Source: an uncultured delta proteobacterium (GTDB taxonomy: Bacteria; Desulfobacterota; Binatia; Bin18). From it: a DNA stretch of 64,000 bases. The stretch's first letter is position 1. Every line of letters begins with the position of its first letter. The stretch lies in NCBI GenBank assembly GCA_963733195.1, contig CAVTCR010000050.1:160001-224000 (forward strand). Reading direction: 5' to 3'. The notes below the pieces were generated by a model. It searched no databases, had not been told where the DNA came from, and was given only the letters and a program-made list of their open reading frames with translations. Position numbers and translations under genes: made by a program. This document shows, one piece after another, positions 10,861 to 39,005 of this stretch.

Positions 10861-10924
10861 AGGCGTGAGGCTGTAGGCTAAAGGCCCAAGGGTCCTCCCC
10901 CTCAAGCCTGCAGCCTACAGCCTG
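10861..10924. repeat. Heptamer-periodic inverted repeat hairpin (AGGCnnn / nnnGCCT)
   Basis: AGGCGTG AGGCTGT AGGCTAA AGGC ... CAAGCCT GCAGCCT ACAGCCT. Confidence 0.85.
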
Positions 10925-11811: not shown

Positions 11812-11871
11812 TGCGTATTACGTAGTGCGTGATACGTGTTCATTTCGTTACGCATCACGTTTCACGCCTCA
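11812..11871. repeat. Heptamer-periodic inverted repeat hairpin (TrCGTnn / nnACGnn)
   Basis: TGCGTAT TACGTAG TGCGTGA TACGTG ... TTACGCA TCACGTT TCACGCC TCA (hpaB stop). Confidence 0.85.
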
Positions 11872-13335: not shown

Positions 13336-13408
13336 GGGGTCAGGGGTCGGGGGCCAGGGTCGGTTTTTCCCATTCTACCGATCCCCGATCCCCGACCCCC
13401 GACCCCTA
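13336..13408. repeat. Heptamer-periodic inverted repeat hairpin (GGGGTCr / CCGAyCC)
   Basis: GGGGTCA GGGGTCG GGGGCCA GGGTCGG ... CCGATCC CCGATCC CCGACCC CCGACCC CTA (stop). Confidence 0.9.
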
Positions 13409-14878
13409 GTATGGTATACAAACAAACTTCGGCTCAGTGTAAAACTCCAAACTGTAACGACCACCTTCACGACCAAAACCACTTTCACGGGCGCCACCGA
13501 ACGGAGTGCGAAGGTCGCGCAAGAAGAAGCTATTCACCCACATCATACCAGTCTTAATCGCGCTCGACACTCGTAACGCCCGGTTCACATCTTGTGTCCA
13601 TAGGAATCCAGCTAAACCGTAGACAGTTCCGTTCGCCAGTCGAATCGCTTCCGCTTCGTCGTGGAACTTTTGTACTGCGAGCACAGGACCAAAAATCTCT
13701 TCATGACAAATCCGCATTGCAGGAGTAACATTCTCGAAAACCGTCGGTAGGAGATAATTACCTTTTTGCAGCGTTGGGTCACTCGGTCGCTTTCCACCAG
13801 TCAGGAGCCTCGCTCCCTCATCGAGACCCGATTGAATGTAGCCTTCAACCCGTTCGCGGTGCTGCGCTGTGATTAGTGGCCCGAAATCTGTCGCCGGATC
13901 AAGCGGGTCCCCGACTTTCAGATTCGCTACTGTTTTGAGAAACCGCTCCATAAAACGATCATAAACGGCATCCTGAAGAATCAATCGCGAACCAGCCACA
14001 CACGACTGTCCTTGGCTACGAAAGATCGCACGCACAGCTCCCTTCACGGCGGTTTCCAGATCAGCATCAGTAAAGACGATATTCGGCGACTTGCCGCCAA
14101 GTTCCAACGATACCCGTTTGAGTGTCTCTGCTGCCGCTTTCAGTACACGTTTGCCGGTCGCCACACCCCCAGTGAAGGAGACAGCGTTAACATCAGGGTG
14201 CGTCGTCAGCGCAGCCCCGACCTCACCAAAGCCAGAAACAATGTTCAGTACTCCGGCAGGTAACCCAGCCTCCTGGGCAATCTCGCCTAGCTTCATCAGA
14301 CTTAACGGCGCGAGTTCAGACGGCTTGAGAACCGCAGTACATCCCGAGGCAAGACAGGGAGCAAGCTTCCAGGTTCCCAGCATCATTGGCGAGTTCCAGG
14401 GAATGATGATCCCTACCACACCGAGTGGCTGCCGCATGGTGACACTCATCAAGTTGACATCAACACCAAGTGAGTTGCTCTCCGTCCAGTGGGCATCTTG
14501 GGTCCACTGCGATAGCGCATCAGCAAAGAACGAAAAATTATTCGCCGCGCGCGGAATGTCGTGCCCGCCGCTTTCTTTCACGGGCTTGCCAACATCAAGG
14601 CTTTCGATGCGTTCCAGCTCAGGGGCGTGCTTCACAAGAAGTTCAGCAAAGCGACGAATCATCTTCGCCCGGTCTACTGTCTTCATCTTCGGCCACGGGC
14701 CATCGTCGAATGCCTTCCGCGCTGCAGCTACAGCACGATTCACATCCTCGACTCCTGCTTCTGCCAACTCAGTGAGTATTGTGTTATTCGCTGGATTGAG
14801 GACAGGAAAGGTTTTACCACTCGCGGCGGGGATATACTCGCCGTCGATAAATAGTTGCGAACGAAAAGTTGGTTGCAT
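13406..14878 (-). CDS. Hydroxymuconic-semialdehyde-type aldehyde dehydrogenase (HpaE-like)
   Basis: PWNSP, FTGG, LELGGKSP, GQSCVAG, EEIFGP, LRDLRTPFGG; clustered with hpaB/hpaD. Confidence 0.88.
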   Translation of the reverse strand: MQPTFRSQLFIDGEYIPAASGKTFPVLNPANNTILTELAEAGVEDVNRAVAAARKAFDDGPWPKMKTVDRAKMIRRFAELLVKHAPELERIESLDVGKPVKESGGHDIPRAANNFSFFADALSQWTQDAHWTESNSLGVDVNLMSVTMRQPLGVVGIIIPWNSPMMLGTWKLAPCLASGCTAVLKPSELAPLSLMKLGEIAQEAGLPAGVLNIVSGFGEVGAALTTHPDVNAVSFTGGVATGKRVLKAAAETLKRVSLELGGKSPNIVFTDADLETAVKGAVRAIFRSQGQSCVAGSRLILQDAVYDRFMERFLKTVANLKVGDPLDPATDFGPLITAQHRERVEGYIQSGLDEGARLLTGGKRPSDPTLQKGNYLLPTVFENVTPAMRICHEEIFGPVLAVQKFHDEAEAIRLANGTVYGLAGFLWTQDVNRALRVSSAIKTGMMWVNSFFLRDLRTPFGGARESGFGREGGRYSLEFYTEPKFVCIPY

Positions 14879-15847: not shown

Positions 15848-15940
15848 GGGAGTGAGGATTGAGGATCTAGGGGAGGTTTACAGGCCTACGATACGCTTCT
15901 CTCTCTTACCTAGTGCCCACCTCCCAATTCCCATCGCCCT
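15848..15940. repeat. Degenerate heptamer-periodic inverted repeat between cimA and cysE
   Basis: GGGAGTG AGGATTG AGGATCT AGGGGAG ... TACCTAG TGCCCAC CTCCCAA TTCCCAT CGCCCT. Confidence 0.6.
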
Positions 15941-36394: not shown

Positions 36395-37562
36395 ATGAGA
36401 GAAGTCGTTATCGTTTCTGCTGCCCGTACAGGAATTGGCAAGGCGTTTCGAGGCAGCCTCAACAAGACTCATGGAGCAACACTCGCGGCTCATGTCATTA
36501 AGCATGCGGTCGAACGCGCAAAGATTGATCCTGTCGAAATTGAGGACGTAGTACTGGGTTGTGGCCTGCCTGAAGGAGCGACTGGTCATAATATCGCCCG
36601 TGTGGCAGCGTTACGAGCCGGATTGCCGAAAACTACAGCTGGAGTAACGGTCAATCGTTACTGCTCGTCTGGGTTACAGGCGATAAGTATGGCAGCGCAG
36701 AGGATTATTGTCGATGGCGCAGATACTATGGTTGCTGGCGGCGTAGAATCGATCAGCCTCGTACAAGGCTCGCTAAACACTAACAATTTCGTCGAAGAGT
36801 GGATGCATGCGAACCTGAAATCCATTTATTACCCGATGCTCTCAACGGCGGAGATCGTTGCGCAACGTTACAAGGTGTCGCGTGAGTCACAAGATGAATA
36901 CTCATTGATCAGCCAACAACGCACGGCCACCGCGCAAGCCGCAGGGAAATTCAGAGATGAGATCGTCCCGTTCACAACCAACATGGAAGTCACTGACAAA
37001 GCAAGTGGGCAAACCTCTCTTCAGGAAGTAACGCTTTCGCGAGATGAGGGGAACCGTCCAGATACGACGCTTGATAAGCTCACTGCCCTCCCCTCTGTCA
37101 CGAACGGCAGCATTACCGCAGGAAATTCCAGCCAGCTTTCCGATGGTGCAGCCGCCTGCGTGCTGATGGAAGCAAGTATCGCCGCGAAGAAAGGGCTGCA
37201 ACCAATGGGCGTGTATCGTGGTCTCATCGCCACCGGTTGTGAACCTGACGAAATGGGGATTGGGCCGGTGTTCGCTGTTCCCAAACTCCTACAGAGGCAT
37301 GGACTGAAGATGGAAGACATCGGCCTGTGGGAACTACGAAGTTTTTGCCGTGCAGACCTAATTGTCGCGATCGGCTAGGGATTCAATGGAACGATTCGTG
37401 GATGGTGGCGCGATTTCCATCGGTCACCCATACGGCATGAGTGGTGCACGCATGGTCGCCCATGCCCTTGCCGAAGGCAAGCGACGTAGCGTGAAGTATG
37501 TGGTCACAACGATGTGTGTTGGCGGCGGAATGGGCGTCGCTGGTTTATTCGAGGTCAACTAA
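36395..37562 (+). CDS. Acetyl-CoA C-acyltransferase (thiolase); frameshifts near 37335-37400
   Basis: VNRYCSSGLQA, TAGNSSQLSDGA, MGIGP, GGAISIGHPYG, TMCVGGGMG. Confidence 0.9.
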
Positions 37563-37569
37563 AAAGAAA

Positions 37570-37594
37570 AGGGGAAAGGATAAGGGATAAGGGG
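37570..37594. repeat. Left arm of heptamer inverted repeat enclosing the four-helix-bundle gene
   Basis: AGGGGAA AGGATAA GGGATAA GGGG. Confidence 0.85.
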
Positions 37595-37619
37595 TGGGGA
37601 ATAGAAAAGAGAGGCTAAT

Positions 37620-37996
37620 CACCAGCTCTGCTTCTTGCAATGACCTGATCTGCGCTGCCAGAGAGCGACTAAGTTCCAAAAGTGAAGTTCGCAAGTCGTT
37701 GTAGTGGACTTGATCGATGAAGCTAAGATCTATGCAACCCGCAGTAGACTGCGAACTTCTCCGGCGGAGCCCTTGGCGATAAGGAGGAAACGAATGTACT
37801 CCTTACGCGAAGAGCGCTCAAAACCTTCAGCGATGTTTGTCGGAACAGACACGGCAGCTCGTTGGAGTTGGTCGCGCAAGCCAAAGTCTTTGCTCAGCTT
37901 GCCTGCGGCTGTGAGGAAGTATACTTGCTTGACCAACTCAATTCCCTTTTGCCAAACCCGTAGATCTTCAAAATTTTCGATTCTTTTCTTCTCCAT
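37620..37996 (-). CDS. Four-helix-bundle protein (23S rRNA intervening-sequence protein family); frameshift near 37731, end approximate
   Basis: FEDLRVWQKG, DFGLRDQLQRAAVSVPTNIAEGFER, FLLIAKGSAGEVRS; last helix (DLSFID...LLELSRSLAAQIRSL) in another frame. Confidence 0.9.
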
Positions 37997-37998
37997 GT

Positions 37999-38030
37999 CC
38001 CCTTATCCTTTATCCCTTATCCTTTGCTCC
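37999..38030. repeat. Right arm of heptamer inverted repeat enclosing the four-helix-bundle gene
   Basis: CCCC TTATCCT TTATCCC TTATCCT TTGCTCC. Confidence 0.85.
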
Positions 38031-38068
38031 GCTATCTTTGTCTCTATCGGCCAATACACGGAGGACCT

Positions 38069-38950
38069 ATGCCCTCGCTAGGAACGATTGACATCGTTTG
38101 CAACTTATTCACCGAAGAAGAAGTCCGTCTTGGTCGCACTGGTGTAGATGAACATTTCCTTAATCAGGTGCGCTTCCCGCAGGAATTACGTCGCGGAGTG
38201 TCAATAGAAGCCTATCTCGAGAAAATGGACCGTGCCGGAATTCAACGCTCACTCCTCATCGCCGTCCGCGCTGGTGATTTACGCGTTAGGCACTCGTTCG
38301 AAATTCCATACGAGCGGGTCGCAGAGATTTGTCAGAAGTATCCCGACCGGTTCTCTGGTCTTGCGGGTGTGGACCCTACACGCGGGATGCAAGGATTGCG
38401 CGAACTAACCCATGCGGTGCATGAGTATGGTTTTGTTGGTGCGCATCTCTATCCGCATTGGTTTGAGATGGCTCCTGACCATGCCCGCTACTATCCGATC
38501 TATGCCAAGTGTTGTGAGCTTGAGATTCCCATCATGATGCAGGTGGGGCATTGCTTGCGATATCAAAAAGATCGCGTCTTACCGAGTGTCGGTCGCCCAA
38601 TCACTCTCGACCGTGTTGCCATCGATTTCCCTGAACTCACGCTCATTGGCATTCATATTGGTTATCCCTGGACCGAGGAGATGATCTCGGTCGCATGGAA
38701 ACACCCCAATGTCTACATCGGCACCGACGCCTATGCCCCACGCCACTGGCAGTCACCGCTTGTGCAGTTCATTAACACTTGGGGACAAGACAAAGTATTA
38801 TTCGGCACCGATTGGCCGGTGATTGACCCAGAACGAGCAATGGCAGAGGTAGACGGGCTTGAGATCAGACCAGAACCAAGGCGAAAATTATTGCGTGACA
38901 CTGCACTGCGGATTTTTCGCTTGCCAGAGTCCGCAGCAAGGACTAAGTAA
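38069..38950 (+). CDS. Amidohydrolase_2 family metal-dependent hydrolase
   Basis: YPIYAKCCEL, HIGYPW, KVLFGTDWP; ATG 38069 with GGAGG RBS. Confidence 0.88.
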   Translation: MPSLGTIDIVCNLFTEEEVRLGRTGVDEHFLNQVRFPQELRRGVSIEAYLEKMDRAGIQRSLLIAVRAGDLRVRHSFEIPYERVAEICQKYPDRFSGLAGVDPTRGMQGLRELTHAVHEYGFVGAHLYPHWFEMAPDHARYYPIYAKCCELEIPIMMQVGHCLRYQKDRVLPSVGRPITLDRVAIDFPELTLIGIHIGYPWTEEMISVAWKHPNVYIGTDAYAPRHWQSPLVQFINTWGQDKVLFGTDWPVIDPERAMAEVDGLEIRPEPRRKLLRDTALRIFRLPESAARTK

Positions 38951-39005
38951 CGAGGACTGAGGGCCGAGCAAAAAAGAGAAAACTCAGTCCTCAGCACTCG
39001 AAACT
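38939..39005. repeat. Heptamer-periodic inverted repeat hairpin (AGGACTG / CTCAGyn)
   Basis: AGGACTA AGTAACG AGGACTG AGGGCCG AG ... ACTCAGT CCTCAGC ACTCGAA ACT; overlaps the stop codon. Confidence 0.8.

Follow-up and report, generated by a model that had tools for sequence, protein, structure and literature searches.

A small four-helix-bundle gene that lies between two complementary arrays of heptamers forms, together with these arrays, a discrete cassette of ~466 bp, which separates a thiolase gene from an amidohydrolase gene in an uncultured delta proteobacterium of the Binatia (assembly GCA_963733195.1, contig CAVTCR010000050.1). Each such cassette consists of one conserved gene and two complementary arrays whose heptamer word is specific to the lineage of the encoded protein; cassettes have a long history of vertical inheritance with occasional transfer of the whole, and are present or absent from site to site. 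The window that we analysed, and to which positions given without a contig label refer, is a stretch of 64,000 nucleotides (nt; positions 160,001 to 224,000 of the contig, forward strand). We put the chances at about even that the insert is a free-standing member of a class of elements known as the intervening sequences (IVSs) of 23S rRNA that bear an open reading frame (ORF). In what follows, G000 is the source genome and labels that begin with C are its contigs, while the other G labels and the L labels denote genomes and loci of relatives.

A small gene enclosed by complementary heptamer arrays

Profile matches place both flanking genes on the + strand, and an initial annotation of the window had described the arrays as standing between co-oriented thiolase and amidohydrolase genes. 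It had the repeats start just after the thiolase stop and end before the next ribosome-binding site, which also proved correct: the left arm begins 2 nt past the thiolase TAA (37560-37562) and the right arm stops ~30 nt short of the GGAGGA motif that precedes the ATG of the amidohydrolase gene at 38069. An inverted-repeat search delimited two arms of 30 nt each (37565-37594 and 37999-38028), which are 83% complementary and spaced 404 nt apart; arm boundaries, here and in Table 1, are taken from local alignments of repetitive sequence. The 16-mer AAAGGATAAGGGATAA, which had been reported as perfectly inverted, is indeed present in both arms. Local alignment of the left flank with the reverse complement of the right flank yielded a score of 17.5, a value that was reached by 0 of 2000 composition-preserving shuffles (shuffle maximum 16.5). 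Each arm is an array of about five heptamers (GGATAAG), and among lags 3-11 self-identity peaks at lag 7, with 0.69 for the left arm and 0.64 for the right one. No Rfam family matched in 37300-38300 (E up to 1), and PADLOC gave no matches.

The sole ORF between the arms that matches the protein family is encoded by the minus strand, and its ATG is found at 37996. The N-terminal frame of 88 codons matches PF05635 (E 1.9e-29, 102.4 bits against a cut-off of 33.8) and TIGR02436 (E 5e-26, 91.1 bits against a cut-off of 24). The start codon is preceded by ...GGATAAGGGGAC, a purine-rich stretch that is supplied by the right arm, just as the initial annotation had it. That annotation had also described this ORF as the only thing enclosed by the arms, a statement that stands for family-matching ORFs and needs correction for the reading frame, which is broken after codon 88, with the last ~34 codons in another frame and with homology stopping at 37632. 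When used as a tblastn query, the intact orthologue from genome G010 matched at 80% over 88 residues and at 50% over a further 34 residues in the second frame.

The thiolase gene is frame-broken as well, and a short-read contig from a near-identical strain (DNA run X2) has 8 extra letters at 37335-37395 within it; the assembly therefore seems to drop bases, so that the small gene may owe its broken frame to an artefact. We regard it as possibly an assembly error and not as proof of a pseudogene. The G000 assembly has indel errors, and its frame breaks are not by themselves evidence of pseudogenes. By reading, five of the eight PF05635 loci in G000 look interrupted; stops were flagged at three of ten such loci in G002 and at none of eight in G010.

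To model the structure of the protein we used the intact G010 orthologue (pLDDT 95.3) rather than the broken copy of the window. The model has a four-helix-bundle fold, and a fold search with it returned 2GSC (XCC0516, pentameric; template modelling (TM) score 0.85-0.92) and 2RLD (BT_0352; TM 0.76-0.88), followed by Avd (4DWL, TM 0.76/0.88) and by ribonucleoproteins of diversity-generating retroelements (DGRs) that contain Avd. The entries 2GSC and 2RLD hold five chains each and, by homology, the small protein is probably a homopentameric ring. Sequence identity to Avd is 13%, and Avd was not among the matches (E up to 1) when PDB sequences were searched by profile. We know of no catalytic motif in the small helical protein. 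The connections that had been drawn at the outset, to the proteins of 23S rRNA IVSs and to the fold of Avd, are upheld by PMC4990558 and by the fold search.

The same junction is filled in two genomes and bare in two others

A thiolase gene adjoining this amidohydrolase gene was found in four genomes only. The junction is filled in G000 and in G010, which belongs to another genus, and bare in G002, which belongs to the same genus, and in L112, so that the polymorphism of filled and empty alleles that the initial annotation had proposed to look for does exist at this site. In the bare alleles the two genes are separated by a spacer of ~20-40 nt without a hairpin. The four amidohydrolase genes form an unresolved polytomy in their tree, which favours neither a gain in the filled genomes nor a loss in the bare ones, and no target duplication can be read from the comparison of filled with bare alleles at this junction.

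The copies in G000 and G010 are orthologous: they have the same orientation, and a contiguous blastn match of 76% runs from the gene via the arm into the amidohydrolase gene. Their proteins are 80% identical over the first 88 residues, and the proportion of differing nonsynonymous sites (pN) is 0.119 versus 0.880 for synonymous sites (pS); because synonymous sites are saturated while pN remains near 0.12, the gene is under purifying selection, even in its antisense position. In both copies the arms are of the GGNNAAA family and have stayed paired, albeit by means of different units, which are GGATAAG in G000 and GGCGAAR/GGGGAAAA in G010, the latter with spare, unpaired GGATAAA units. The arms keep both their complementarity and their lineage-specific word across a divergence that saturates synonymous sites. 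Neutral DNA would have lost both; they are maintained by selection or else by a process in which one arm is copied from the other.

A contig from DNA run X2 joins 37590 to 38003 via 16 other letters, which makes a hairpin of these arms without the gene; its shorter side has only 21 letters, with a likeness of 85%. This contig may come from another locus or organism, and we have not counted it as an empty allele.

Inverted arms are found at homologous loci across phyla

With the intact C62 copy as the query, a scan that covered one genome per species yielded 581 relatives, of which the best 80 span Planctomycetota, Acidobacteriota, Nitrospirota, Chloroflexota, Desulfobacterota, Gammaproteobacteria, Verrucomicrobiota, Armatimonadota and others. 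Enough flanking sequence was available at 83 loci, 75 of them from these best 80 of 581 relatives and 8 from G000; the relatives are not independent samples. The match between one flank and the inverted other flank exceeded the 99th percentile of shuffles at 74 of the 83 loci, and exceeded every shuffle at 56 of them, as would be expected from the earlier proposal to examine the flanks of homologous genes for inverted arms. The other nine (L020, L023, L024, L032, L041, L043, L072, L077 and L082) stayed below that percentile. Shuffles served as the null for this analysis; a mismatched-pair null and a "direct" control were inflated by common words and by whole hairpins in some of the flanks.

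The period of the arms is 7 in 25 of the 29 strongest loci and 8 in the remaining four. In the same 29 loci the one arm ends a median of 34 nt before the start codon, and the other begins a median of 30 nt after the stop. Median arm lengths are 4.9 and 5.0 units, and 56 of 68 loci have a G-rich 5' arm. A few PF05635 genes of relatives, L197 (G002), L198 and L196 (G010), have long inverted arms in which the units are longer, at ~10-11 nt, or irregular without a clear period; period 7 is thus the rule without being universal.

Arm similarity follows the protein lineage

Across 68 cross-phylum loci, the similarity of arms rises with protein identity (Spearman 0.15, a value that 0 of 500 permutations reached). 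When arms were counted as alike at a Jaccard index of at least 0.15 for their 6-mers, they were alike in 39% of the 33 pairs with at least 70% protein identity, versus 1-2% of pairs below 60%. A replicate of this analysis within the Binatia, which covered 52 cassettes and used between-genome pairs only, gave 22 of 52 versus 6 of 1148, again with 0 of 500 permutations.

In six pairs, several of which cross phyla, genes that are 76-96% identical and share the same arm family show no detectable homology in 1.2 kb of either flank. These are L026/L033 (Planctomycetaceae and Desulfacinum), L016/L044 (Desulfobulbaceae and Hydrogenedentota), L021/L044, L017/L042, L052/L060 and L025/L033, where for L025/L033 the upstream flank alone was compared, the downstream flank being too short. 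Since the arm family is the same in unrelated flanks, the arms are part of what is transferred and not of the target site. Each protein lineage keeps its own repeat word, even where flanks in different phyla are unrelated, and gene and arms together constitute a single unit that is heritable and horizontally transferable.

The word of the window cassette can also be followed by its genome-wide frequency, which we surveyed in 41 relatives. Triple-unit matches to GGNNAAA number 194, 305, 256 and 96 in the four genomes that hold the protein lineage of the window cassette (at least 76% identity), all four of which have GGNNAAA arms, and at most 11 in G002 and in every other genome of at least 90% completeness without the lineage.

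Cassettes and gene-less hairpins within the source genome

The G000 assembly (6.9 Mb, 93% complete) contains eight PF05635 loci and a ninth, decayed cassette, with the insert of the window as one of the nine. By reading, all eight PF05635 loci lie between inverted periodic arrays, with a different word at each, and all eight scored above the 99th percentile of shuffles. The ninth cassette (C50:106738-107182), which the PF05635 search missed, has AGTAGYC arms around ~340 nt, in which one frame still reads ...EGF...FYDIVQGSLEEC.... The nine words are GGGGTCG, GGAGTCTR, GGATAAG, GAGAATKG, TAGGGAA, GGACTGAG, AAGGTTCA, GGGTGTT and AGTAGYC. As judged by eye, the cassettes at C7:79548-80005 and C63:35637-36165 adjoin restriction-modification-like genes, one lying in or between pieces of a DNA-methylase-like frame (with ...CGSGHILL... 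just downstream) and another directly after a restriction-specificity-like gene.

Periodic arrays with periods of 6-9 number 757 in this genome, 587 of them with period 7. Inverted pairs of arrays that exceed the 99th percentile of a displaced-region null number 131, and in 116 of these the loop is shorter than 100 nt. Under strict pairing, the pairs with gaps of 300-500 nt are PF05635 cassettes in 4 of 4 cases; in a looser census, loops of this size are likewise only PF05635 cassettes, and larger loops are either weak matches or the cas4 case described below. A loose k-mer census that gave 345 pairs was discarded, as these were mostly chance matches. The left arm contains more G than C in 127 of the 131 inverted pairs and, in an inverted repeat, a G-rich left arm means that the G-rich arm stands 5' on either strand. 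Arms of six or more units are found in 4 of 210 arms of gene-less hairpins.

Gene-less hairpins of their own word accompany seven of the nine cassettes, with 39, 14 (for the window cassette), 8, 6, 5, 5 and 1 hairpins, respectively; a hairpin was assigned to the word of a cassette if it had at least five 7-mers in common with the cassette arms. Hairpins of one family differ from each other in unit order, unit number and loop sequence. They are not copies, and hence not simply "emptied" cassettes or copies of the kind left by MITEs (miniature inverted-repeat transposable elements), and this non-identity argues against simple copy-and-paste. The gene-less hairpins lie between co-directional genes in 77 cases, between divergent genes in 16 and between convergent genes in 11, with 12 unclear (thus 77 of 104 classifiable hairpins are co-directional, a count that stands without a genome baseline).

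The initial annotation had named five hairpins of the window, at 10861, 11812, 13336, 15848 and 38939, as the empty forms of this cassette. Inverted repeats are present at 10861, 11812/11827, 13336 and 38939 (Table 1), while there is nothing at 15848. Their proposed identity has to be given up: none has the GGATAAG word, those at 13336 and 38939 carry the words of other cassettes, and the empty alleles of this junction are bare spacers of 20-40 nt. The GGACTGAG hairpin just past the amidohydrolase stop has kept the same word in the same-genus genome G002 (L091) and is half-recognisable in G010, where the downstream neighbour differs.

A 664-nt loop at C28:61835-62552, a candidate for a second type of cargo, was rejected as such when it turned out to be the cas4 gene of a cas6-cas4-cas1 string. 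This gene (also L190:4836-5553) is bracketed by nearly perfect inverted heptamer arrays, AGGATTTAGGATTTGGGCTCTAGGCT and its complement, which have the polarity of a cassette and lie with one arm in each spacer; it is the sole enclosed non-PF05635 gene found.

Table 1 Features of the cassette, its host genes and the gene-less hairpins in the window.
Feature	Position	Strand	Remarks
Thiolase gene, upstream host gene	36395..37562	+	Thiolase_N E 3.5e-66; Thiolase_C in two pieces; frame-broken near 37335-37395
Left arm (3' arm in the sense of the small gene)	37565..37600	.	~five units: GGGGAAA GGATAAG GGATAAG GGGTGGG GAATAG
Four-helix-bundle gene, PF05635 / TIGR02436	37632..37996	-	codons 1-88 at 37733-37996; last ~34 codons in another frame, to about 37632
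Right arm (5' arm in the sense of the small gene)	37996..38030	.	purine-rich pre-ATG stretch at inner end
Amidohydrolase gene, downstream host gene	38069..38950	+	Amidohydro_2 E 2.2e-43; own GGAGGA 38060-38065
Gene-less hairpin, word GGACTGAG (word of cassette C53:41378)	38939..39005	.	23 nt at 74%; 10 nt at 100%
Gene-less hairpin, word GGGGTCG (word of cassette C53:98001)	13336..13409	.	24 nt, 83%
Gene-less hairpin, word GGCTGTA/GGCTAAA	10861..10923	.	25 nt, 80%, 6-nt loop
Short gene-less hairpin, word of GCGTGATAC type	11827..11867	.	12 nt, 92%

Relation to known elements

The helix-45 IVS of Coxiella burnetii, which carries an S23p ORF, is described as being 428 nt long, with a terminal stem of 28 bp in the middle of which RNase III cuts, and has three to four GACAGAT heptamers, varying in number among strains, before the S23p start (PMC4990558). 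The same source cites IVSs for Leptospira, Brucella and Xanthomonas, describes the Xanthomonas S23p homologue as a toroidal homopentamer, and calls the origin and role of IVSs unclear. The element in the window is like these in its protein family, in size (an element of ~430 nt), in the terminal inverted repeats around its ORF and in the tandem heptamers just upstream of the start codon. Unlike an IVS, which sits in a helix of the rRNA, it does not lie in a 23S rRNA helix and has instead a thiolase and an Amidohydro_2 gene as its flanks, to both of which it is antisense. Moreover, heptamers figure in the IVS literature searched as a local detail of one IVS, and not as a family-wide, lineage-specific bracket with gene-less relatives. 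What we find here is a discrete insert, with alleles that are either filled or empty, in which a PF05635 gene lies between mutually complementary arrays with units of 7-8 nt. Our search of full-text literature, outside which lay subscription journals and supplements, found no paper describing such a bracket outside rRNA, which is to say "not found" and not "not in print".

Heptamer arrays have been described independently of this protein family. Xanthomonas has 70-75 convergent pairs of GGGAATC arrays on opposite strands, Nostoc has heptamer repeats too, and bacterial heptamer repeats in general are over-represented without explanation (PMC4692102); TAACTGA repeats are known from Beggiatoaceae (PMC4679880). 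The Xanthomonas pairs have the same design and polarity as the gene-less hairpins that we describe, and those of Nostoc and Beggiatoaceae are likewise intergenic tandem arrays of 7-nt units. The terms "four helix", "S23" and "intervening sequence" do not occur in the available text of these two papers, in which G-quadruplexes or translational regulation are discussed instead.

A second point of comparison is offered by REPIN-RAYT systems, in which a single-copy gene, that of a REP-associated tyrosine transposase (RAYT), is flanked by its own inverted repeats and accompanied by dispersed gene-less hairpins (REP doublets forming hairpins, REPINs), and each gene lineage has a repeat family of its own. 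The RAYT protein is a transposase of the Y1 type, and the copies of a REPIN are nearly identical. The cassettes are similar to these systems in that the gene lies between inverted arrays of its own word and has dispersed same-word hairpins, an "own repeat family" that is found for seven of the nine cassettes. They are unlike them in that the gene is PF05635, which encodes a small helical protein and not a Y1 transposase, and in that the hairpins of a family have only the word in common. Nor does the insert qualify as an insertion sequence or MITE, since its single ORF is PF05635, no transposase is present and the hairpins are not near-identical copies. The description of the insert as a small transposase-free cassette, in the form of a discrete insert with one gene and two arms, can therefore be retained from the initial annotation.

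Avd (4DWL; 8UB7 and related DGR ribonucleoprotein entries) has the same four-helix-bundle fold. Avd forms a pentameric assembly on structured RNA. Unlike the cassettes, the Avd proteins of DGRs go with a reverse transcriptase, which is not found near any cassette. A resemblance of PF05635 to Avd is also noted in PMC10053308.

RNA stem or DNA element

In a transcript that crosses the insert, the two arms would pair into a ~30-bp stem from which the gene is looped out, and cutting of this stem by RNase III would make an insertion between or within genes tolerable. By analogy with rRNA, the arms may well pair in RNA into a stem for RNase III to cut, a proposition for and against which we see the balance as level. 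We advance more tentatively, and with somewhat less than even confidence, that the protein, pentameric by homology, binds the word of its lineage, in the arms of its cassette as well as in the dispersed gene-less hairpins of that word. In predictions, the arms close the minimum free energy and centroid folds on both strands (z -4.4 and -6.1), and an RNase III gene is present in G000. A cassette has the same orientation as both of its neighbours at 38 of 54 loci and is opposed to both at 1 of 54, so that it is co-oriented in 38 of 39 co-directional contexts; among the cassettes of G000 six of nine are co-oriented with both neighbours and one of nine is opposed to both. The orientation of flanking genes was called from the longest ORFs, with no gene finder. 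The copy in the window, which is antisense to its operon, has the rare orientation (1 of 39 co-directional contexts). The mRNA intervening sequence that the initial annotation had offered as its second possibility is a putative one here.

Several observations weigh against this reading. The antisense copy of the window has no sigma-70-like site in 37450-38150, and its own expression is unexplained. RNA contigs at the locus cover only parts of the two flanking genes; the best sequencing runs contain 5-7% (RNA) and at most 27% (DNA) of the words of a 2.5-kb stretch. Mismatches in the arms are G.U-compatible in the sense of the gene in 48 cases, in the antisense in 43 and in neither in 66, and thus carry no strand-specific wobble signal, although this neither favours nor excludes an RNA stem. 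In Coxiella, the protein is apparently not made, and the excised RNA is quickly degraded (PMC4990558). As to the tie between word and protein, most of the similar Binatia pairs are orthologous sites at which cassettes are stably inherited; part of the association between word and lineage is therefore shared descent, and the Binatia replicate does not count as independent evidence. Six genomes (G001, G005, G006, G008, G013 and G014) hold 26-437 GGNNAAA matches with no orthologue and no GGNNAAA-armed cassette among the loci examined; these genomes are 74-89% complete and cassettes often lie at contig ends, which may be why none was found, and kin are not independent. Within G000, two of the nine cassettes have no gene-less hairpins of their own word, and three hairpin families (ACGTAA, AGTTGTC and ACGTGAT) have no resident cassette; cassettes with the words ACGTAA and AGTTGTC are present in relatives.

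A further function that we considered for the arms, the closing of all three frames to incoming ribosomes, was dropped: when the arms are read inward, 0, 1, 2 and 3 frames are closed in 17, 25, 13 and 13 loci, respectively, versus 24, 14, 18 and 12 for the reverse complements, which is no clear excess.

The RNA reading can be taken one step further, to an idea that we judge unlikely in this full form, namely that the four-helix-bundle proteins form a large family of rings that are programmable and read tandem heptamers, with five G-rich units per pentamer controlling stem formation. Here the model is TRAP, a ring protein of 11 subunits that binds tandem (G/U)AG repeats with 5-nt spacing in the trp leader. 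The likeness would be one of working mode and not of membership, in that both would be homo-oligomeric rings with about one short unit per subunit, the binding of which could choose between RNA structures; the fold is unrelated, however, and the small protein would have 5 subunits (by homology), a spacing of 7-8 nt and a binding activity that is putative. Each subunit of the pentamer would hold one 7-8-nt unit of the G-rich single strand, as in TRAP. On either strand it is always the G-rich arm that is transcribed first, so that binding to it would determine, during transcription, whether the C-rich arm that follows pairs with it into the stem and whether RNase III cuts. Each lineage would in this way have under its control, besides its own cassette, dozens to hundreds of intercistronic hairpins as a private set. 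The idea would jointly explain the period of 7, the arrays of about five and almost never more than six units, the strictness of the polarity and the fact that word and protein are inherited together and, if true, it would describe a horizontally transferable post-transcriptional regulon.

An alternative to an RNA stem, which we hold to be rather unlikely, is that the arms act in DNA, as sites of recombination or insertion or as single-stranded or cruciform hairpins for making or moving cassettes and their gene-less relatives, with the protein as a DNA-binding accessory in a system that is REPIN/RAYT-like and lacks a recognisable nuclease. The existence of filled and bare alleles, the occurrence of gene and arms in unrelated contexts across phyla, the match of hairpin families to resident cassettes and the lack of a strand-specific wobble signal would all fit such a role, and the strict polarity of the inverted pairs (127 of 131 with the G-rich arm 5') could reflect the way in which arrays are synthesised. 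The cassette, however, has a single ORF and contains no recombinase, transposase or nuclease; filled and bare alleles show no readable target duplication, the hairpins of a family differ in unit order, unit number and loops and so are not copies, and cassettes are stably inherited at fixed sites in the Binatia. The 38:1 co-orientation with neighbours, in addition, points to a constraint at the level of the transcript.

It is also conceivable, but quite improbable, that the hairpins are an intergenic feature of the host, such as stabilisers or processing sites of mRNA, and that four-helix-bundle genes landed in loops that already existed, in which case the arms would belong to the site. The 116 gene-less periodic hairpins of G000, the position of 77 of the 104 classifiable ones between co-directional genes and the similar bracketing of a cas4 gene are in line with this view. 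It is contradicted by related genes whose arm family is the same in genomes and contexts that are unrelated, by bare alleles of this very junction that lack any hairpin, and by the restriction of 300-500-nt loops to four-helix-bundle cassettes, both under strict pairing (4 of 4) and in the looser census. That the small gene is the Avd accessory gene of a DGR is extremely improbable even though the fold predicted for it matches that of Avd (4DWL, TM 0.76/0.88), as well as the Avd of DGR ribonucleoprotein structures, and PF05635 is the commonest family near DGRs (PMC10053308), given that 0 of 12 reverse-transcriptase matches of G000 lie near any cassette and none is on C50, C52, C53, C62, C63, C7 or C84 (template/variable repeat pairs were not searched for), that the neighbours here are a thiolase and an amidohydrolase gene, and that identity to Avd is as low as 13%.

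Implications

The function of the IVS (S23p) protein has been obscure since the 1990s (PMC4990558), and the locus described here, together with its relatives, links this puzzle to that of the excess of heptamers in bacteria. What is new is the lineage-specific word, the gene-less hairpins of the same word, the contrast in GGNNAAA counts and the polarity by which the G-rich arm stands 5'. The word that each lineage keeps hints at what its protein recognises, and the parts are such that this can be tested: a protein of ~125 residues, a 35-nt array of known word, a stem, and natural states that are filled, bare or gene-less. If it is true that lineages read their own words, these proteins would form a compact set of sequence-specific binders of nucleic acids, widespread and diversified by nature; otherwise, the cassette would still be an unusual selfish element that crosses phyla without a recognisable mobility enzyme.

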